From assembly GCA_964374105.1 (NCBI GenBank), contig CAYJXI010000004.1, forward strand, positions 13,202-77,201: a stretch of DNA of 64,000 bases. Reading direction: 5' to 3'. The position numbers were made by a program, and so were the translations under genes. This DNA is from an uncultured Planctomycetales bacterium. Its GTDB lineage: Bacteria > Omnitrophota > Gorgyraeia > Zapsychrales > JANLHA01. Positions 6,424-41,836 of the stretch are shown one piece after another. The notes under the pieces are model-generated. The model saw nothing but the letters and a program-made list of their open reading frames with translations. It was not told where the DNA came from and did not search any database. Numbering within the stretch: position 1 is the stretch's first letter; the number at the start of each line of letters is the position of its first letter.

Positions 6424-9400
6424 TTGAGGTGTCAGAAAGTGATCAATTTTATTGAGCGCAAGCGAAACCCTAATATTTATCGTTTCATTACTGGATTTTT
6501 CTGTTTCTCTTTTTTTCTTAGTAGTATTATCCCGCCCTACTCTTTAAGTTACGCTCAGACTTTTCCTCAATATCTTCCCAACCAATTTCCTAATTTATCC
6601 GGTTATTCTATCCTTAATCTCCCAACCCCGGGAACAATGATAACGATGAGTGATGAATTTATCCCGGTCCTTGTCAAAGGAATTACCCTTTATCCTAATA
6701 ATCCACTCCAATTTGATTTTATTGTAGATACTGGTGATACAGATTTGGAAGGAGAAGAATTAAAGACAGAATCCAGTAAGTTGATCAAGTACTTTTTGGC
6801 CTCCCTTACCGTACCAGAAGAGGAATTATGGGTTAATTTATCCCCCTATGAAAAGGATCGGATCATTCCAGAAGGCTTAGGAATCACCGAAATGGGCAAG
6901 GACCTTCTGGCCCAGGATTATATTTTAAAACAATTAACTGCCTCGTTAATTTATCCTGAGAATGATTTGGGTAAAGAGTTTTGGGCACGAGTTTATAAGA
7001 AGGCACAAGAAAAGTACGGATCGACAAATATCCCCATTAATACCTTCAATAAGGTATGGATTCTTCCAGACCGGGCGGTTGTCTATGAACATGAGGGGAG
7101 TGCCTTTGTTGTTGAGCGTCATTTAAAAGTGATGCTCGAAGAAGATTATTTGAGTTTACAAAATAACCTGGGGAATGAAAAGCTGGGCACCCATCAACTT
7201 AAAGAAACCGATGTTAAAAACTTAAGCAACATTTCTGGTGAGGTGGTAAGAGAGGTGTTGATCCCGGAAATCGAAAAAGAAGTCAATGAGGGTAAAAACT
7301 TTGCTAACTTAAGGCAGATCTATAATTCCATGATCTTGGCGACATGGTATAAAAAGAATCTCAAAGAAAGCCTTTTGGGGCAAGTTTACATGGATCAGAA
7401 TAAAACCAAGGGTGTAGATGTTGACGACAAACTTATCAAACAAAAGATTTATGATCAATATATTGCCGCCTTTAAACAAGGTGTCTACAACTATATTAAG
7501 GAAGACGTTGACCCATTAACCCAAGATTTAATTCCCAAAAAATATTTTTCAGGAGGAGCCATGGGTGTCTGGGCAGAGCAATTGATTGAGCTGCAAGGAA
7601 GCCTGGAAAATCAACCTCCCCGGGTCGTGCAAGCGGTTACAAAACCTCGCGGCAAACATCGAAAGATCACCTGGGAAGCTTTAGATGTGGGAACCAATGC
7701 CAGACCTGAGGTGGTTGATGAGCTTGCAAAAGTTTTCCGTGGGCCAGCGATGCGGCTGTCCGGACTGGGATTAGATGAGAATCAGGAAAAGCTGGTTGAT
7801 GATACAATAGCCACCTATTTTGAAGGGGAAAGACTTAAAAGTGGCCGCCTTTTACTCCCACGGGATGAAGAATATCAACTCTTGGATCCCGATGGGGCCT
7901 TAAGGGATAATGGTGTCAAGATTTATCTTCTCCCGGGGTTAATCAACAAGATACTCCAGTTGGCGGATCAACGTAAAATTCTAAATCCCCCCATTGATCT
8001 TATTAGTCATCCTGGTCCTACCCGAAGAAATATTTATATTGATCCTGCTTATTTTGAATCCATATTGAAATTACAACCTAAAATCTGGCTCTCCCAATGG
8101 GCGGTCCATGAACTGGCGCATATCGAGCATCCTGAGGCGGAGGAAAAAGAAATTCTAAAAATGGCTCCGATTCCCGGGGTAACTCTTGCTGAAGAAAAAC
8201 CAGAAAGACTCAAATCCAAAGAGGAGCGTAAAAAACAAAAGGAATTTAAAAAACCAATCTTCAAGCGACCTGTTACGTTGAAGTCATCCATCCGCGAACT
8301 TGATTTTGGTCTTTTCCCTAATATTGCCCGGCCGGTGTATGCTTCTTTAGAGGAGGCAGGGATCAAAACCGTTGGCGATTTTAGGAACTGGACCGAAGAA
8401 GATCTCTCGAAGCTTAAATATATTAAAGGGAGAGTTGTCAAAAGAATCAAAGATACCTTGTTGAGAGAAGTCAAGGTGAAATTAAAAGGGGAAGAGGAGA
8501 AAAAAGCGAAGCCAGTGACAAAGAAAAAAAAGGAAGAAAAGACAGTTAAGGAAGAAGGGCCTATCACGCTAAAGTCCTCGATTCGACGGTTGAATTTGGG
8601 CAAGAGGCCATTTTCGGACAAAGTCTTTAAGGCCTTGGAATCGTCTGGGATTTTTACCATTAAAGACCTTAAAAATAAATCAGTAGAGGAATTGTTTAAG
8701 ATCAAGTGGATTGGAACGGATGTTGTGTTAAGGATAAAGACAGAATTGGTAAGAACGGTTGGGGAGAATTTAAAAGGCGAGGTATGGCCTGAAGTAAAGC
8801 CGGCGGTTAAGAAAGAGAAAAAGATTGATTTAACTGTCACAACCGAAACAGAAGGTTTTAGTGATGTCTATGGCAAGTCCTATTTGCAAGGGAACTCCGG
8901 TGTTTCCTTTACCAAGGTCCAGCTAAGAGAATTGATGGGCCGTTGGTCAGAGAAAGTTCCCTCTAAAGCTTCGGTCGCCCCGATTTCTTCCCGAATGACC
9001 ATGGGACTTTTTAATATTGGGTTGTTGGAGAGACTAGGCAATGGAACACCGGGACGACCTTATCAATACCGATTAGTCAGCTGGCTTCGGGAGAAGGCCT
9101 TAAAGTTGGATAATATCGAGGAGTGGTTAAGTTCTCAAGATCCCCGGCTCATCGAAAATGAATTGCAAAAGGCCCATGTTCGATATCGTAATATCCCTAA
9201 GGTTCAATCATTGGTCAAAAAATGGGAAAGAGATGTTAAGAAGGGTAAGGCACCGGCAAAAAAAGAGGTCGCAGCCGCAAGAATATTTGGACGTGTCCCT
9301 GGCTATACCATCTATGATGCCTTATTGGATATTATGTATTTAGAGAAGGAACTCAGTGGGAAAAAAGGAAAAGCCCCGCGAGTATCAGAAAAACAAGCCG

Positions 9401-12400
9401 TGGATTTAAAATTGACAACCGAAACTGAAGGCTTTAAAGATGTTATTGGAAAATCGGATTTGCAGAAAAAACCCGGGGTGACCTTTAATAAAAGACAGCT
9501 TATGCAATTTTGGGGACGATGGTCCAATGTCAAAAAAGTCCCAGGTAAAGAAGGGACGGCCTGGCGGGTGTTGATGGGGCTTTATTCGATTGGACTCCTT
9601 GAGGGGAAAAAGACAGATAAGGACTCCAAAATTTCCCAAGAATTTCGTTTGGTCAGTTGGTTAAGAGAAAAGGCACTGCGAGTCAAGGATATTGAAGAGT
9701 GGCTCATCTCCCAAGATCCTGAGCTCATTGAGGGAGAACTTAAAAAGGGCCATATCCAATATCGTGATTATAAAAGAGTTCGTAAGATTATTCAGCAATG
9801 GCAAAAAGATGTTAAACAAGGAAAGATTCCCAAGAGAAAAGAAATCCCGGAAGTGAAAAGAATGGGACGAGTTCCTGGGTATACCATTTATCATGCCTTA
9901 TTGGATATCATGAGCCTGGAAAAAGAATTAAGCAAAAAAGGAAAAGCTCCGGCCATGCGTTGGTCAGGATTGGAAATGGATGAGGGTCAAGAAAAGCTGG
10001 TGGATGATGCGGTTGCGAGTTATTTCGAAGGAGAGAAACTGATGGAAGGTCGATTGATCCTGCCGCGGGATGAAGAATTCAAGGTCCTGGATCCCGAAGG
10101 CGTCTTACGGGATAATGGGGTTAAGATATATTTTCTCCCCAATTTGATTGGTAAGATTACGCAGTTAGCCTCAGACCGTAAAATCAATAATCCCCCCATT
10201 GATCTTGTCAGTCACCCCGGTCGCACAAGAAGAAATATTTACATTGACTCAGCCTATTATGATTCAGTCTTAAAAAATCAAAGTAAGATTTGGAGAACGC
10301 AATGGGTTGCCCATGAACTGGCCCATATCGAAAACCCTGAGGCTGAGGAGATGACCATTCGAAAGATAGCTCCATTACCAACGGGTGAGAAAGTTGCTAA
10401 AGAAGCCCCTGTCAAACCGGAAAAGAAAAAAGCTGAAAAGAAAATAGAGAAACCTGAAAAACGAGAAGAAGAAAAGGAGAAGGTGGTAAAAGAAGAAGGG
10501 CTGATCACACTTAAGTCCTCGATTCGACGATTAGATTTTGGTCTTTTGCCAAATATTGCTGGACCTGTGTATGATTCTCTGGAGGAGGCGGGAATTAAAA
10601 CAGTGGAAGATCTCACTCAATGGAGCGAAGAAGATTTATTGAAGCTTAAATACATTAAGGCTAGTGTGCTACAGAGAATCAAAGATACATTATGGAAAGA
10701 AGTCAAAAAGAGATTAAAAGGGGAAGAGGAGAAAAAAGCGAAGCCAGAGAAAAAGAAGAAAGAAGAAAAGCCTATTGTGGAAGAAGGGCCGATAACGCTT
10801 GAGTCTTCGATTCGCAGATTGAATTTAGGGAAAAAACCATTTGTGTTGAAAGTCTACAAGGCCTTAGAATCAGCTGAGATTAAGACTATTGAGGATCTTA
10901 AGAATAAATCAGAAAATGAACTGTTAAAGATCAAGTGGATTGGGAAAGGAGTTGTGGCAAGAATAAAATCAGAACTGTTAAGCACGGTTGGGGAGACTTT
11001 AAAAGGCGAGGAGGTTAAAGAACCTCCTGAACCAATGGCTAAAAAGGGAGAGAAAAAAGAAGAGAAACCTCCCAAAAAAGAGAAACCGATTGACTTAACT
11101 GTTACAACCGAAACGCAAGGGTTTCAAGACATCTTTGGCAATCCCAATTTGCAAGGGAAACCCGGTGTGACCTTCACTAAAATCCAATTACAAGATTTAA
11201 TGGGGCGATGGTCAAATAAAGTTCCTTCTAAAGCTTCGGTAGCCCCGATTTCTTCCCGAATGACCATGGGGCTTTATAATGTTGGGTTACTCGAACGAAG
11301 AGGCAATGGTACCTCGCGAAGTCCTCATGAATATCGTCTGGTCAATTGGCTGAGGGAGAAAGGCTTAAAGTTGGATGATATTGAAGGGTGGTTAAATTCT
11401 CAGGATCCTGATTTAATGGAAAAAGAATTAGGCAAGGCCCATGTTCAATATGACGATCTCCCCAAGGTGCAAGAGTTGGTCAGAGCATGGAGGGTCCAAG
11501 TCGATTCTGGCAAAGCTGTAGAGAAAAAAGAACGTGAACCAGTCAAAAAATTTGGACGAATGGCCGGTTACACAATCTTTCATGCCCTGATTGATATCAT
11601 GAGTCTGGAAAAAGAATTAAGCAAACAAAAAGCTGAGGCTCCAAGCAAAGAGGCGGGTCCTAAGGTAGAAAAAAAGCCAAAGGAAAAAGAAAAGATTGCC
11701 AAACCCGGTACAACCCTACCGGAAAATGTCCTTAAGGCTTTACCATTTTTTGAAAAAATTTTGAAAAATCAAGTTACTGAAATTCCCCCAGAACAAATTC
11801 CTATTATGCGTGAGGTTTATAAGGATATTCTTCAAACATTTAGCAATATTAACGGTGATCCAGAAGCCTGGTTGAAGGCGCAGTTTAAGGTGGAAGAGGA
11901 TAACCTTGCGATTTTAATTTGGATCTATAATAAAAAACCAAAAATTGTCCAGTTTTTCTTGAAGGCATTGGAGGGAAGAGAAGAAGCCAAAAGAAAAAAA
12001 CCTATTAAAAAAGAGGAAGTCCCCAAGCCTGAAACAAAACCATTTTATCGAGAGAAGGGTGTACAACAATTTCTTGCGTCACCATCCTCGAAATTTATCC
12101 TTATATTCAATCAAAGCGGCTCAAAAAGAATTATTGATCTGAAGACCGCAGAGGATACGGGAATTCAGATTGAAGAGAAAGATGGGCCTAAGGCCCTAGA
12201 TGCAGTATTTTCACCAGAAGATCAATATCTAGTTGTTTGGTATGAATATGGGCCGGCTCGAATATGGGATTTAGAGAAGAAACAAGAACGCACGGATATT
12301 TCGATTGGCACCAACGAAGTCAGTCCGAAATTAATACCCGTCTTAGAACAAAGATATGGGAGGGGAACAGAAGCATTTAAACGTCAGCTGCGCAATGCCA

Positions 12401-15400
12401 AAGGTGTAAAAGCAGCCAAATTTTCCTTGGAAGGGAGGCGACTTTACATTCAGTATGCCAATTCCTTTGCCAAGGTGTTTGATGTGGAAACGGGTCAGGT
12501 CCTGGGTCCGGAGACAAAGACGCATGAACGGGCCATGTTTTCCCGCGATGGGACACTTTTAAAGGTTTGGCCTAAGCCAAAGAAGGGAGAAAGACGGGGG
12601 ATCTCCAAGCCAAATGTGATTGATATTAAGACTGGTGAGTTCAAGGGGGATCCTGGGAATGCCTTTGACTATGACGAGGAGGAAAATCCTCGTTTTGTTC
12701 ACCAAGTCCATGTTTATCCCCGTTTTTATGATCTGCCTCGTAAACCTATTTTCCTTAAAGTGTCACCCAATGGGAGATGGGTTTTATATTCGGATGGGCA
12801 AACTTATCTTCAAATATATGAGGTGGCGACAAAAAGGCTTCTTCCGATAACCTTTTCTAAAAATATCATTGATGGAAAAAGGGAGTTCCAAGTCGAGCCG
12901 ACCTTTACCGAGGATAACAAACTCCTTTTGAGTTTACGCCAATTTCGCGAAAGGATCTCAGGAAAACCCGATAGATGGGCAAGGTTAGATAGTCTGTTGA
13001 TTGATCTTGAGAACCCAACCGATATCAAAGAATTGCCCCGTAAGGCTTGGATTTCCTCAGATGGGAAGAAAATATTTGTTGTCACCAATATCGAACATGT
13101 TGAATCCGGCCCTCAATTACCTCGCCATCGCCTTTTGGAGGCCCTTGAGTTGAATGATACGGGTGTAGCTTTCCGGGATGATGTTAAATTAGAACTTCCT
13201 CAATTTACCTCCAATAGTAAAAAATTGATTGTCTATTTTGAAGATCAAGGGTTAGATGTGATTGATTTGGCTGTGGCCGAACCAAAGGTGATCAAAGAGG
13301 AAATTCTCCCGGAACCTGCGAAAGCAAAGGGTATTAAAGAAATTGACCTTGATGAATTCTTAAAAAAGATAGAAGGAACCCCTAATGATATCCCCTATAA
13401 AGTCTTGGATTGGATCACAGAGCAGAAAACACCCTTAAGATTTGAAGATCCCCCAAGGGCCCCACCGGTTTTTGAAGCTCTTTCTATTTACGATATCCCT
13501 GGGAAAGGAAGCCGATCCTTAGAGAAACTCTTAGAAGATAGCAAATTTCATAAACGGATAGGAGAGCATTTCATTTATCAAAGGGACGATGGGAGTTATT
13601 TGGTTATTCGATTCTTAAAAGAAGGGGAGGACCCTGGGCGGCTCCTCTATGAAAGCAAATGGTTTGATTATTTGCAGGAATTAAAGGACAGAGGGATAAA
13701 ACTCAATGGGAGTTACCCCAAAGCTGTCCTTTTAGACAATGAGCGGGTGGTGCGTTTAAGTCCACAGAAATTACCCGAAAGATTAGCAGATAACATACAA
13801 TTTTTTAAGGATGAGTCGGTTCAATTGCACTCAAGGGAGGAGGGGGATACATCTGGAATATCGATTTATACGCTTATGGCGTATAAAATCAGAGATTTGG
13901 ATTATGTGATTCCTTTGCCGGATGCCAAGCCCATTGACCAATCCATTCGGATCAACCTCCATGACTTATCTTTATTGCTTCGTTTGGGTTTGGTGAATCC
14001 AGAAATCATTAATCTTTTAAGCCGAAGCAGGATCAATGGGGGAGTGCATGAATCATTTTTGTGGATGGCGGAAATTTTACATGATGCCGAATGGAATAAA
14101 CGGGCAGAACGGCATAAGCTTTTTGAACTCGAAAGTTCGATCATCCAGGTCAAGATGAAGGCCAGTGGTCCTGGAAATTTTGCGGGTATGGTCAAGATCA
14201 ATGACTTAATCGAGTTGAAACCGCCGCTGGTGGATTTTAAGCAACTAGAAACCTATTCGGCGGATGATCGGACGAAACTTCTTTCTGTCTATTTTGTCGG
14301 GAATTATCTGATTGCAAGCATCTTAAGTGAGGCTAAAAGTTTACGGGAAGAATTTAAATTGAATGAGAATAGTCCTGACCATATGACAAAATTTGCCGAA
14401 CGTTTAAAATCAATCTATACAAACGCTTATGTATCCTTTAACAATAAACCAATACCCACCAAGATATTTTCTCTCATCAATTGGCAAGAATTGGCTCGAC
14501 AGATAGCTCAATTCATGACGGACAAGAGCCCTGAGGCGGTTAAACATCAAAGATTACCCTCGGAATTCCTCAAAGCCAACTATATTTTTACCGCCTTTAT
14601 GGTGGAAGATTTTGCCATGACCCATGGTAAAAGAGATCAGGCGATGTTGACAGGAATAGATTTAGAATCTGCCAAAGAGCAAGTCTCTTCCATACTGAGT
14701 GAATTTAATAATTGGGCACAGTCGTTTCGGGGGGAATATGATCCGGTCAAGTTATTCAGTGAAATTAGGGCGCAGATGACCACTTCTCAAGCATTGGCGG
14801 CATTTATCAAGCAAAATTTAGAAAAATTATTTCAGATCCGAAAGGAATTAACTGATAAAAAAGAGCTAGATAGTTTAAAGAGTTCGGTTTTAAGACAAAC
14901 CATTTCCAAATTGGATACACTTTTGTATCAATTGACTGGTGAACCGGCCTTCGTTTCTTTTGAAGGTTTTCTAGAGGCTTTTAGAGACAAGAAATCCCCA
15001 TTTTTTACATTAAAACCCGAAACAAGGTTAACCATCACCACCCAAGATACAAGGGAGTACAAATTCGCTTTTCGTCAATTTGATAATAACTTTGTCCCCA
15101 ACGCTATTTACGGGACAAAAGGAGAAACGGTTTACAATAACCATTACGGGCCAAAAGGAGAAGTCATTATCAGGGATTATATAACAAGCATTAAGGTCGG
15201 AATGGTTGATCAGGCGATAGTGACAAGGAAAGAACAACCCCCAACTCCAGGAACATTTACCAAAGGTGGGATTGATTTGAATCCAGAATTGCTAGATCTT
15301 CAAATCAAACGGGATGGGAAAGGAGTCCCGTTACCCTTGCTCCAACAACCTATCCAAGATATGAAGATTGAAGGCTTTTTACCGATCATCATCAATGTGG

Positions 15401-15582
15401 CGCCCGTCAACCTGCCTTTGCTTCTGGGAGTAGCGGAACCTGGAAAAAAGAAAGAAGACAAAGAGGCAGCACCTACCCCTCTGGATAGTGATTTAGGCTA
15501 TACGTCTCCTAGAGGCGTGGATTTGGTTAATAAGCGCTCAAAGAATTTCTATGCTAAGAAATTGAGTTTGGTCCTTCCTTAG
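6424..15582 (+). CDS. Giant (3052-aa) secreted or surface protein with internally duplicated modules. The true start is possibly GTG 6439, preceded by GAGGTG.
   Basis: Uninterrupted 9.16-kb ORF. The N-terminal hydrophobic signal-peptide-like segment is FFCFSFFLSSIIPPYSLSYA. It carries two HELAH-containing modules, four HhH modules resembling the RNAP alpha C-terminal domain, three copies of an approximately 190-aa module, a Lys/Glu-rich linker and a TolB/WD40-like region. It is followed by a strong intrinsic terminator. Confidence 0.8.
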   Translation: MRCQKVINFIERKRNPNIYRFITGFFCFSFFLSSIIPPYSLSYAQTFPQYLPNQFPNLSGYSILNLPTPGTMITMSDEFIPVLVKGITLYPNNPLQFDFIVDTGDTDLEGEELKTESSKLIKYFLASLTVPEEELWVNLSPYEKDRIIPEGLGITEMGKDLLAQDYILKQLTASLIYPENDLGKEFWARVYKKAQEKYGSTNIPINTFNKVWILPDRAVVYEHEGSAFVVERHLKVMLEEDYLSLQNNLGNEKLGTHQLKETDVKNLSNISGEVVREVLIPEIEKEVNEGKNFANLRQIYNSMILATWYKKNLKESLLGQVYMDQNKTKGVDVDDKLIKQKIYDQYIAAFKQGVYNYIKEDVDPLTQDLIPKKYFSGGAMGVWAEQLIELQGSLENQPPRVVQAVTKPRGKHRKITWEALDVGTNARPEVVDELAKVFRGPAMRLSGLGLDENQEKLVDDTIATYFEGERLKSGRLLLPRDEEYQLLDPDGALRDNGVKIYLLPGLINKILQLADQRKILNPPIDLISHPGPTRRNIYIDPAYFESILKLQPKIWLSQWAVHELAHIEHPEAEEKEILKMAPIPGVTLAEEKPERLKSKEERKKQKEFKKPIFKRPVTLKSSIRELDFGLFPNIARPVYASLEEAGIKTVGDFRNWTEEDLSKLKYIKGRVVKRIKDTLLREVKVKLKGEEEKKAKPVTKKKKEEKTVKEEGPITLKSSIRRLNLGKRPFSDKVFKALESSGIFTIKDLKNKSVEELFKIKWIGTDVVLRIKTELVRTVGENLKGEVWPEVKPAVKKEKKIDLTVTTETEGFSDVYGKSYLQGNSGVSFTKVQLRELMGRWSEKVPSKASVAPISSRMTMGLFNIGLLERLGNGTPGRPYQYRLVSWLREKALKLDNIEEWLSSQDPRLIENELQKAHVRYRNIPKVQSLVKKWERDVKKGKAPAKKEVAAARIFGRVPGYTIYDALLDIMYLEKELSGKKGKAPRVSEKQAVDLKLTTETEGFKDVIGKSDLQKKPGVTFNKRQLMQFWGRWSNVKKVPGKEGTAWRVLMGLYSIGLLEGKKTDKDSKISQEFRLVSWLREKALRVKDIEEWLISQDPELIEGELKKGHIQYRDYKRVRKIIQQWQKDVKQGKIPKRKEIPEVKRMGRVPGYTIYHALLDIMSLEKELSKKGKAPAMRWSGLEMDEGQEKLVDDAVASYFEGEKLMEGRLILPRDEEFKVLDPEGVLRDNGVKIYFLPNLIGKITQLASDRKINNPPIDLVSHPGRTRRNIYIDSAYYDSVLKNQSKIWRTQWVAHELAHIENPEAEEMTIRKIAPLPTGEKVAKEAPVKPEKKKAEKKIEKPEKREEEKEKVVKEEGLITLKSSIRRLDFGLLPNIAGPVYDSLEEAGIKTVEDLTQWSEEDLLKLKYIKASVLQRIKDTLWKEVKKRLKGEEEKKAKPEKKKKEEKPIVEEGPITLESSIRRLNLGKKPFVLKVYKALESAEIKTIEDLKNKSENELLKIKWIGKGVVARIKSELLSTVGETLKGEEVKEPPEPMAKKGEKKEEKPPKKEKPIDLTVTTETQGFQDIFGNPNLQGKPGVTFTKIQLQDLMGRWSNKVPSKASVAPISSRMTMGLYNVGLLERRGNGTSRSPHEYRLVNWLREKGLKLDDIEGWLNSQDPDLMEKELGKAHVQYDDLPKVQELVRAWRVQVDSGKAVEKKEREPVKKFGRMAGYTIFHALIDIMSLEKELSKQKAEAPSKEAGPKVEKKPKEKEKIAKPGTTLPENVLKALPFFEKILKNQVTEIPPEQIPIMREVYKDILQTFSNINGDPEAWLKAQFKVEEDNLAILIWIYNKKPKIVQFFLKALEGREEAKRKKPIKKEEVPKPETKPFYREKGVQQFLASPSSKFILIFNQSGSKRIIDLKTAEDTGIQIEEKDGPKALDAVFSPEDQYLVVWYEYGPARIWDLEKKQERTDISIGTNEVSPKLIPVLEQRYGRGTEAFKRQLRNAKGVKAAKFSLEGRRLYIQYANSFAKVFDVETGQVLGPETKTHERAMFSRDGTLLKVWPKPKKGERRGISKPNVIDIKTGEFKGDPGNAFDYDEEENPRFVHQVHVYPRFYDLPRKPIFLKVSPNGRWVLYSDGQTYLQIYEVATKRLLPITFSKNIIDGKREFQVEPTFTEDNKLLLSLRQFRERISGKPDRWARLDSLLIDLENPTDIKELPRKAWISSDGKKIFVVTNIEHVESGPQLPRHRLLEALELNDTGVAFRDDVKLELPQFTSNSKKLIVYFEDQGLDVIDLAVAEPKVIKEEILPEPAKAKGIKEIDLDEFLKKIEGTPNDIPYKVLDWITEQKTPLRFEDPPRAPPVFEALSIYDIPGKGSRSLEKLLEDSKFHKRIGEHFIYQRDDGSYLVIRFLKEGEDPGRLLYESKWFDYLQELKDRGIKLNGSYPKAVLLDNERVVRLSPQKLPERLADNIQFFKDESVQLHSREEGDTSGISIYTLMAYKIRDLDYVIPLPDAKPIDQSIRINLHDLSLLLRLGLVNPEIINLLSRSRINGGVHESFLWMAEILHDAEWNKRAERHKLFELESSIIQVKMKASGPGNFAGMVKINDLIELKPPLVDFKQLETYSADDRTKLLSVYFVGNYLIASILSEAKSLREEFKLNENSPDHMTKFAERLKSIYTNAYVSFNNKPIPTKIFSLINWQELARQIAQFMTDKSPEAVKHQRLPSEFLKANYIFTAFMVEDFAMTHGKRDQAMLTGIDLESAKEQVSSILSEFNNWAQSFRGEYDPVKLFSEIRAQMTTSQALAAFIKQNLEKLFQIRKELTDKKELDSLKSSVLRQTISKLDTLLYQLTGEPAFVSFEGFLEAFRDKKSPFFTLKPETRLTITTQDTREYKFAFRQFDNNFVPNAIYGTKGETVYNNHYGPKGEVIIRDYITSIKVGMVDQAIVTRKEQPPTPGTFTKGGIDLNPELLDLQIKRDGKGVPLPLLQQPIQDMKIEGFLPIIINVAPVNLPLLLGVAEPGKKKEDKEAAPTPLDSDLGYTSPRGVDLVNKRSKNFYAKKLSLVLP

Positions 15583-40393: not shown

Positions 40394-40939
40394 ATGATGA
40401 CTCGACTCTTTAAAAAATATAAAGAAGAAATTGTTCCGGCTGTCCAAAAGAAGTTTAATATCAACAACGCTATGGCTGTTCCTCGTCTTGAAAAGATTGT
40501 GGTGAACATGGGGGTAGGGGAAGCCATTAATGATATTAAGTTCATCGAAACGGCCATGCAAGAATTAGCGATGATCACTGGACAAAAGCCGATCTTAAGA
40601 AGATCGAAAGAAGCCATTTCCAACTTTAAATTAAAACTAGGTATTCCCATTGGATGTAAAGTGACATTGCGCCGTGCCAAGATGTACGAATTTATGGATC
40701 GATTTTTCAATGCCACTTTACCGCGTATTCGTGATTTTAATGGAGTGCCCAGGAGATCTTTTGATAAGGAGGGAAATTACAATCTAGGAATTAATGATCA
40801 ATCGATTTTCCCGGAAATAGATACCGGTAAGATGTCCCGAACTCAAGGGATGGATATCGCCTTTGTTTTTAATAAGGGCCCTAAAGAATTAACCTCCGAG
40901 GTGTTAACCCTTTTTGGACTGCCGTTTGGCCGATCATGA
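40394..40939 (+). CDS. rplE: 50S ribosomal protein L5
   Basis: 181 aa; conserved L5 segments and position in the spc operon. Confidence 0.9.
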   Translation: MMTRLFKKYKEEIVPAVQKKFNINNAMAVPRLEKIVVNMGVGEAINDIKFIETAMQELAMITGQKPILRRSKEAISNFKLKLGIPIGCKVTLRRAKMYEFMDRFFNATLPRIRDFNGVPRRSFDKEGNYNLGINDQSIFPEIDTGKMSRTQGMDIAFVFNKGPKELTSEVLTLFGLPFGRS

Positions 40940-40999
40940 AACAAAAGTGAAGAGTTATCATTAAGGATTATCTATTAAGATAAGGAAGGAATAGAGGTT

Positions 41000-41185
41000 A
41001 TGGCAAGGAAAGCCTTAATCAATAAATCAAAAAGAAAACCAAAATTTTCGACACGACAACATAACCGCTGCCTGCTTTGTGGGCGTCCGAGAGGTTATTT
41101 AAGAAGGTTTGGGACTTGTCGTATTTGTTTTAGAGAATTGGTTTGGAGAGGAGAGATTCCGGGAGTGAAAAAGGCCAGCTGGTAA
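41000..41185 (+). CDS. rpsN: 30S ribosomal protein S14 type Z (zinc-ribbon form)
   Basis: 61 aa; [23 protein letters not shown] carries two CxxC motifs. Confidence 0.9.
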
Positions 41186-41325
41186 TCATTGGTTGTTAGA
41201 GGAGTTACTATCAAAGAATAATTTATAGAGGTACCGAAAATTTTTCCTAAAGATATCTTCCTTCTTAACTGAGTTTAAAGGGCGAAGCGAAGGATTAACA
41301 CTGAATTTAAAATTTATTAAACATC

Positions 41326-41414
41326 AGGACTTACGCGTTTGGCCAGTTTTTTAGGATTCCCCTGTGTATAGGGAACCACGAGAGGCGTCCCAACAGGGCA
41401 AACGCGTAAGTCCT
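41326..41414 (+). other. Long perfect inverted repeat (16-bp stem, about 57-nt structured loop) within an atypical 255-bp rpsN-rpsH spacer
   Basis: AGGACTTACGCGTTTG (41326-41341) pairs with CAAACGCGTAAGTCCT (41399-41414). The loop contains internal pairings TTCCC..GGGAA and CCCTG..CAGGG. Confidence 0.5.
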
Positions 41415-41440
41415 AAACATATTAAACAAGGTTATTGGAC

Positions 41441-41836
41441 ATGTCTCTTCATGACCCTATAGCAAATGCTTTGACGTCGGTAAGAAACGCCTTGCATGCT
41501 AAAAAAGAAACCGTTGATCTCCCTGCGTCAAAATTAATGAAGCAAATACTGGAAATCTTCAAAAATGATGGATACATTGAAGATTTCCGACTGCTTAAGA
41601 ATAATGTCCAAGGCTCTTTTAAAGTTTATTTGAAATATGATAAAAAGAAGTCCTGTATTCTGGGGTTGAGGCGAATCTCTAGGCCGGGTTTACGAGTTTA
41701 TGTCAGGCAGGATAAAGTTCCTCGCGTTTTGAGCGGTCTAGGAACAGCGGTGATCTCCACCTCCAAAGGGGTCATTTCCGACAAGGAAGCTCGCAAACTC
41801 AAATGTGGAGGAGAAGTCCTCTGTTATATTTGGTAA
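41441..41836 (+). CDS. rpsH: 30S ribosomal protein S8
   Basis: MSLHDPIANALTSVRNA matches the S8 N-terminus. The track ORF starts at TTG 41435; ATG 41441 is preferred. Confidence 0.9.
   Translation: MSLHDPIANALTSVRNALHAKKETVDLPASKLMKQILEIFKNDGYIEDFRLLKNNVQGSFKVYLKYDKKKSCILGLRRISRPGLRVYVRQDKVPRVLSGLGTAVISTSKGVISDKEARKLKCGGEVLCYIW

Follow-up and report, generated by a model that had tools for sequence, protein, structure and literature searches.

We analysed the junction of the spc operon genes rpsN and rpsH within a 64-kb stretch of DNA, which as a whole we call the window. The features found at this junction are collected in Table 1. The rpsH product is identical (100%) to the database protein P0001, and the next-nearest relatives of this S8 protein are Omnitrophota proteins with at most 78% identity. 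The two genes are separated by 255 nt (41186-41440), a gap that the initial annotation had already described. Its accompanying view, namely that rpsN and rpsH are normally adjacent or a few nucleotides apart, holds only in part. Our spacer is the longest one seen, yet in 78 Omnitrophota-like loci in which both genes were located (76 found by scanning JGI metagenomes, 2 by look-ups) the spacers span 0-130 nt, with a median of about 40 nt and unrelated content. Upstream of the ribosomal gene clusters, the window also carries an ORF of 3052 aa (6424-15582, plus strand).

Table 1. Features at the rpsN-rpsH junction, in window coordinates
Feature	Position	Strand	Basis
rpsN (ribosomal protein S14, 61-aa zinc type)	41000-41185	+	ORF; S14 homologues upstream of S8 in relatives
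AT-rich part of the spacer upstream of the insertion, 134 nt, unstructured, without recognised feature	41186-41319	+	fold, similarity search
Left copy of the target-site duplication, AACAT	41320-41324	.	read from sequence; family-wide 5-bp, offset-1 rule
Very probable MITE, 91 nt (outermost C, 89-nt core, outermost A)	41325-41415	.	terminal repeats, target-site duplication
Left terminal inverted repeat, AGGACTTACGCGTTTGGC	41326-41343	+	minus-strand match to the scanned pattern GSCAAACGCGTAAGTCCT
Interior of the MITE, lineage-specific, with no relation to other interiors of the family	41344-41396	.	BLAST
Right terminal inverted repeat, GGCAAACGCGTAAGTCCT	41397-41414	+	in full-length relatives encodes the transposase C-terminus ...A-N-A-stop
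Right copy of the target-site duplication, AACAT	41416-41420	.	read from sequence; family-wide 5-bp, offset-1 rule
Likely rpsH ribosome-binding site, AAGG	41428-41431	+	read from sequence; probable role; 9 nt before ATG, outside the hairpin
rpsH (ribosomal protein S8, 131 aa)	41441-41836	+	Pfam PF00410; Omnitrophota homologues; start ATG 41441

The spacer and its inverted repeat

The downstream part of the spacer is dominated by a perfect inverted repeat. Its left arm, AGGACTTACGCGTTTG, lies at 41326-41341, and the exact reverse complement follows at 41399-41414. Direct reading and a repeat search agree on this 16-bp stem, which had been noted before, and the loop, previously given as about 57 nt, is exactly 57 nt long (41342-41398). 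With two mismatches (91% complementarity) the arms reach 23 nt, and they form the strongest inverted repeat of the 64-kb window. The 91-nt element defined below folds to -41.9 kcal/mol, compared with -23.1 +/- 3.2 kcal/mol for shuffled sequences (z = -6.0), and none of 200 shuffles was as good. Two pairings had been described inside the loop, TTCCC/GGGAA and CCCTG/CAGGG. Both do exist, but they are mutually exclusive, because both need the CCC at 41360-41361, and the MFE structure uses other pairs, with an irregular inner stem that contains G-G and A-A mismatches. From the end of the stem to the start of rpsH there are 26 nt, and the hairpin is clear of both the ribosome-binding site and the start codon.

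The fold of the region upstream of the element (41186-41324, 139 nt) has an energy of -14.5 kcal/mol and z = +2.1. This part of the spacer showed no similarity to the other fetched loci, and it contains one weak sigma-70-like match (41193-41222). Note that the insertion (that is, the element and one duplicated copy of its target) accounts for just 96 of the 255 nt. When the element and one AACAT are taken away, 159 nt are left, which still exceeds the spacer of every relative (0-130 nt).

The hairpin had been said to lack a following run of T and therefore not to be an intrinsic terminator. We come to the same conclusion: the sequence after the hairpin is AAACATATTAAAC, and an intrinsic (Rho-independent) terminator was rejected because no U-tract stands directly after the stem. 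A sequence scan found neither a terminator-like site nor a promoter signal within the element. Since the terminator scan accepts loops of 3-8 nt only, the missing U-tract, as read from the sequence, is the real argument against a terminator.

The Rfam scan that the initial annotation had proposed gave no match for the hairpin. At the gathering score, a search of the whole window with Rfam 15 returned nothing, and the window contains no 16S rRNA gene. A permissive search of 40900-41600 (E <= 10) yielded only matches at chance level; gltS, a lncRNA fragment, CopA, mir-586 and SAM-alpha were rejected as identities, all of them having E > 1.

Terminal repeats and the IS701-related group

Both arms are bordered by the same pentanucleotide, in the layout ...TTA[AACAT]C-AGGACTT...AAGTCCT-A[AACAT]ATT.... 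As the two copies of AACAT lie one base outside the repeats, the element extends from 41325 to 41415. Its outermost bases, C and A, are mismatched, whereas in the family they are usually T/A or C/G.

The pattern GSCAAACGCGTAAGTCCT was scanned against 185,579 species-representative genomes; the window's own genome is not among the matches listed. Those that are listed comprise at least 118 stretches from about 60 genome assemblies. Most of the hosts among the matches listed are Patescibacteria (Kaiser-, Sacchari-, Moranii-, Magasanik- and Falkowbacteria and others), and the other hosts are MAGs labelled Bdellovibrionales or Gammaproteobacteria and one Nitrospirales MAG. A few isolated single matches in other phyla may be due to chance (we estimate that about 35 are expected for the full database). 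In all matches listed, the 18-mer stands at the border between the interior of an element and an AT-rich flank, and the interiors are very diverse.

When left and right ends were paired, we obtained at least 87 elements within 3.5 kb and at least 85 within 1.5 kb (46-1402 bp). The paired elements are mostly 80-290 bp long, and four of those from the matches listed are full-length copies of 1065-1072 bp (L045, L028, L021 and L058). These 1.07-kb copies from Patescibacteria share their ends with the window element: the 16-nt repeats of L045, L028 and L058 are identical to it at 16 of 16 positions, and the left repeat of L021 is off by one base. The copy in L045 (5099-6169) has perfect 16-nt repeats and one ORF of 322 aa, which matches the NCBIfam model NF049921 'IS701 family transposase' with 366.7 bits (cut-off 250) and also Pfam DDE_Tnp_1 and DDE_5. 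This transposase ends in ...L-A-N-A-stop within the right repeat (GCA AAC GCG TAA), and the overlap of the stop codon with the repeat may help to explain why that stretch is conserved.

The duplication next to the repeats is a property of the family as well. Of the 85 elements paired within 1.5 kb among the matches listed, 42 are flanked by a perfect direct repeat of 5 bp that is set off by one base from the AGGACTT...AAGTCCT core; a control with shuffled flanks gave 0.85 such cases on average and never more than 4. The base between duplication and core is T or C on the left side and A or G on the right side.

Using tblastn, we found 40-46% identity between the L045 transposase and elements such as the annotated 'IS701-like element ISMesi2 family transposase', and 35-36% identity between it and plasmid transposases of the 'ISAba11 family'. 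The ends of ISMesi2, which is found on pMESIL01 of Allomeiothermus silvanus (Deinococcota), are TAGGAGTTACGCAGTTG / CAACTGCGTAAGTCCTA, and the end of a copy on a Methanosarcina barkeri plasmid is TAGGACTTACGCAGTT. Both repeats match that of the window at 13-14 of 16 positions, and a 5-bp duplication with an offset of one base is common to the window element, its family and the Methanosarcina copy (ATGGT). While the ISMesi2-like elements are autonomous and carry an NF049921 transposase, the window element keeps only the ends, around an unrelated interior of 53-57 nt. The Methanosarcina copy (L207, in M. barkeri MS plasmid NZ_CP009527.1, 9794-11250) is a full-length element with the same repeat core, and its transposase is 44.5% identical to the Patescibacteria transposase. 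Since this is a copy on an archaeal plasmid, the IS group crosses the boundary between bacteria and archaea.

A similar relation is seen to ISAba11 of Acinetobacter, an IS701-related element of about 1.1 kb. The outer 12-13 nt of its repeat match those of the window (the right end of ISAba11 is ...CTGCGTAAGTCCT and that of the window element ...ACGCGTAAGTCCT), whereas the inner positions differ (CAG vs CGTTTG). ISAba11 is autonomous and has its own transposase, unlike the window element with its 91 nt, no ORF and a host from a different phylum. According to PMC7519801, ISAba11 is IS701-related, its inverted repeats measure 13 bp and its target duplication 6 bp.

By working definition, a MITE is small, has no coding sequence, shares with an IS the repeats and the length of the duplication, and is mobilised in trans (PMC6382973, PMC10969869). 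The window element has 91 nt and no transposase gene; the ORFs that overlap it are spurious (32 aa), and its terminal repeats are perfect at 16 of 16 positions. The duplication at its flanks has the same length as that of the parent IS (5 bp, offset 1), and its terminal repeats are identical to those of the autonomous IS of 1065-1072 bp. The repeat core that is specific to the group, (T)AGGACTTACGC..., is present at both ends. Because no transposase ORF is found in it, the element is a non-autonomous derivative and not an IS. The same logic has been used to identify MITEAba12 in Acinetobacter, a non-coding element whose repeats and duplication length match the full-length ISAba12 and for which mobilisation in trans was inferred (PMC6382973). 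MITEAba12 differs from our case in that it belongs to a different IS family, that its parent IS is co-resident and that its transposition has been observed. In summary, we are confident that 41325-41415 is a non-autonomous MITE of the ISAba11/ISMesi2-like group of the IS701 family, inserted into the rpsN-rpsH spacer and tolerated there. Among the explanations offered by the initial annotation, a miniature inserted element had been listed last, and it is this one that the IS701-family terminal repeats and the 5-bp duplication support.

Two further observations concern other members of the family. Candidatus Kaiserbacteria CSBr16_134 (contigs of the SKGH01 series, L012-L124) contributes 25 fetched stretches with MITEs of about 125 and 215 nt, many of them at contig ends. 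For a genome of the candidate phyla radiation this MITE load is unusually high, and it is a likely cause of the fragmented assembly. Furthermore, the members of a subfamily of about 120 nt (for example L113 2564-2683, L061 1058-1178, L066 4030-4150 and L086 328-448) have in common a hairpin at their centre, and co-variation between genomes is seen in its stem (CGTACnnnnGTACG, GCTGTATACnnnATACAGC, CCATAGCnnnGCTATGG). The co-variation suggests a conserved internal structure, perhaps a site for a host factor or the transposase, or an RNA structure.

We also looked for further copies of the window element. The 64-kb window contains no second copy of the arm 16-mer with up to 3 mismatches and no IS701-like transposase, and no copy of the MITE was found in about 14 kb of flanks that were added by extending the window edges through Logan contigs. 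The 25-mer CCAACAGGGCAAACGCGTAAGTCCT, which runs across interior and repeat, had no match in the JGI metagenomes, and the repeat 18-mer had none in viral contigs. For the 57-nt stretch between the arms (41342-41398), BLAST found no match in any fetched locus.

Assembly breaks provide a different kind of evidence. Logan contigs (k = 31) of the same organism from the runs ERR3478686 and ERR4904391, obtained by exact-protein look-ups, both begin at 41385, and the Logan contig that carries rplE-rpsN ends at 41353. These positions are exactly 30 nt (k-1) inside 41414 and 41324, the outer ends of the inverted repeat, which is the pattern produced by a de Bruijn graph when a sequence is common to other loci. 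The breaks therefore suggest that further copies of the element are present in the source community, as supporting rather than decisive evidence; a polymorphism of the central 31 nt (41354-41384) would fit them as well, and there are other hairpin-rich sites in this genome at which Logan contigs break. Two other causes of the breaks were rejected. With an inversion of the loop, the divergence would start at 41342 and not at 41354, and the perfect arms of the inverted repeat itself, at 16 nt, do not reach the 30 nt (k-1) that such a break requires.

In another region of the window, downstream of the gene at 782-1870, there is a cluster of three GC-rich hairpins (1969-2060), namely TTAACCCCGCATCTT/AAGCTGCGGGGTTAA, CCCCGATGATACATCGGGG and ACCCCGCCAATGGCGGGGT. 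Two occurrences of the motif ACCCCG...CGGGGT lie in this cluster (0.02 expected), and Logan contigs from three runs end at 1991 and 2081, given as inside the cluster. These hairpins may be REP-like repeats or stacked terminators.

Related spc operons and alternative readings

The hairpin is absent from all of the 78 related spc operons, and no 16-mer resembling the repeat (up to 3 mismatches) occurs in 250 kb of the relatives' loci, flanks included. On the other hand, the relatives have 40 rpsN-rpsH spacers with a length of 40 nt or more, and 9 of these contain strong hairpins of unrelated sequence, which are likewise found at other junctions (2 of 10 rplE-rpsN spacers and 5 of 17 rpsH-rplF spacers). 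This suggests that the spc operon broadly tolerates palindromic insertions and that the rpsN-rpsH junction is no special site for them.

Strong unrelated hairpins in the rpsN-rpsH spacer were seen in L149, L179, L151, L176, L170 and L144. Those of L149 and L179, located just upstream of position 1501, have 19-bp stems in common, on AACACCCGGTGTT...AACACCGGGTGTT, with different inner stems and energies of -41 to -42 kcal/mol; hairpins of this type may represent a clade-specific RNA or further mobile elements of palindromic structure. A separate clade with 57% S8 identity (L191-L203) has a length-conserved rpsN-rpsH spacer of 68 nt upstream of position 1501. It contains the hairpin GGCCTGTCACGC-NNNNN-GCGTGCAGG, with a variable loop and variable closing pairs (CACGCATAATGCGTG, CACGCATGAAGCGCG, CACGCTTAACACGTG). 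This hairpin has a better claim than that of the window to be a genuine conserved leader of rpsH.

If the MITE had been domesticated, its RNA hairpin would act in cis on the spc mRNA. Processing of the hairpin by RNase III could uncouple rpsH-rplF and the genes that follow from those further upstream, or the hairpin could stop 3'-5' exonucleases and so stabilise the upstream mRNA. The length and stability of the stem (16 perfect bp, 23 at 91%, -41.9 kcal/mol, z = -6) would suit such a role, as would its location 26 nt before rpsH in an essential operon, where it would be transcribed for want of a terminator. At least two sequencing runs (ERR3478686 and ERR4904391) contain the insertion. For any effect that the window MITE might have on the spc mRNA, the best functional parallel is offered by the Correia elements of Neisseria, whose target duplication is TA and which are unrelated to it in sequence and in parent transposase. 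Correia elements are MITEs of about 100-150 bp that lie between genes and are co-transcribed, and the long RNA hairpins formed by the transcribed copies can be cut by RNase III (PMC2649163, PMC10969869). Experiments on these elements have demonstrated promoter, IHF and RNase III activities, whereas the window element is known from its sequence alone. Against a role in cis it has to be considered that the insertion is limited to one lineage, and hence there is no conservation or covariation that would point to selection. Furthermore, the relatives manage well on spacers as short as 0-130 nt, and the similar rates of unrelated hairpins at other junctions of the operon fit passive tolerance. On balance we regard domestication as unlikely. 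We would give just as little credit to an extended form of this idea, in which the stem of the co-opted MITE would set the ratio of proximal to distal spc products and the rpsN-rpsH junction of Omnitrophota would repeatedly recruit unrelated palindromic elements.

The initial annotation had favoured a different kind of regulation, a relocated S8 operator or another conserved structured RNA, and the evidence speaks against it. In E. coli, the operator through which S8 acts on the spc operon overlaps the start of rplE and mimics helix 21 of 16S rRNA; it is an irregular helix with conserved unpaired adenines. An operator of this type upstream of rpsH would allow S8 to repress its own translation. 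The window hairpin resembles it in being an RNA structure within the spc operon near an S8-related gene. What speaks for an operator is only the position of the hairpin, directly upstream of rpsH; its inner stem is irregular (G-G and A-A mismatches). Unlike the E. coli operator, it is a transposon end, is not conserved and overlaps no start site. Its arms are transposon ends that occur in multiple copies in unrelated genomes, across phyla and even on an archaeal plasmid, and a target-site duplication flanks them. The outer 16 bp are all perfect Watson-Crick pairs, the ribosome-binding site and the start codon are not overlapped, the hairpin is absent in 78 of 78 related operons, and Rfam gave no match even at E <= 10. 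The initial annotation had named two observations that would speak against a regulatory RNA, the absence of the repeat from related genomes and many copies elsewhere, and we have found both. The operator is thus very improbable.

An assembly artefact, in which the metagenome assembler would have put a chimeric or wrongly joined repeat into the spacer, can practically be dismissed. Repeats can misassemble MAGs and short-k assemblies do break here, but in independent Logan contigs rpsN is joined to the element's left 28 nt (L007) and its right 30 nt to rpsH (L001 and L002), all with identical junctions, and a real insertion is marked by the 5-bp duplication, which is the same on either side.

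Proposed history and meaning of the insertion

The element is an ordinary selfish insertion and not a conserved regulatory RNA. Its history may be pictured as follows. A full-length copy, resident in this genome or acquired transiently, would have supplied in trans a DDE transposase that recognised the AGGACTTACGCGTTTG ends. The element would then have been inserted into the AT-rich target AACAT, the 5 bp of which would have been duplicated in the process; the predicted empty site before the insertion is ...AAATTTATTAAACATATTAAACAAGG.... As there is no terminator and the operon is essential, the element is presumably transcribed within the spc mRNA. There its ends would pair as a stem of 16-23 bp, 26 nt before rpsH, and would leave the ribosome-binding site free. 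Most likely the MITE is a tolerated, near-neutral passenger, although a side effect on the processing or stability of the mRNA is possible.

In the literature that we searched there was no description of MITEs in Omnitrophota or Patescibacteria and no mention of ISMesi2. As far as the searchable literature shows, the occurrence of MITEs of this IS701 group in these two lineages is undescribed.

A conspicuous hairpin in a core ribosomal operon can pass for a riboswitch-like leader, and recognising it as a pair of transposon ends prevents the report of a false 'novel regulatory RNA'. The repeat of the ISAba11/ISMesi2 type is found almost base for base in Patescibacteria, in Omnitrophota, in a Nitrospirales MAG and in MAGs labelled Bdellovibrionales or Gammaproteobacteria. 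It has given rise to many independent MITE families, some of them with high copy numbers in the tiny genomes of the candidate phyla radiation. In the case described here, an essential operon tolerates a hairpin of -42 kcal/mol only 26 nt before a start codon.
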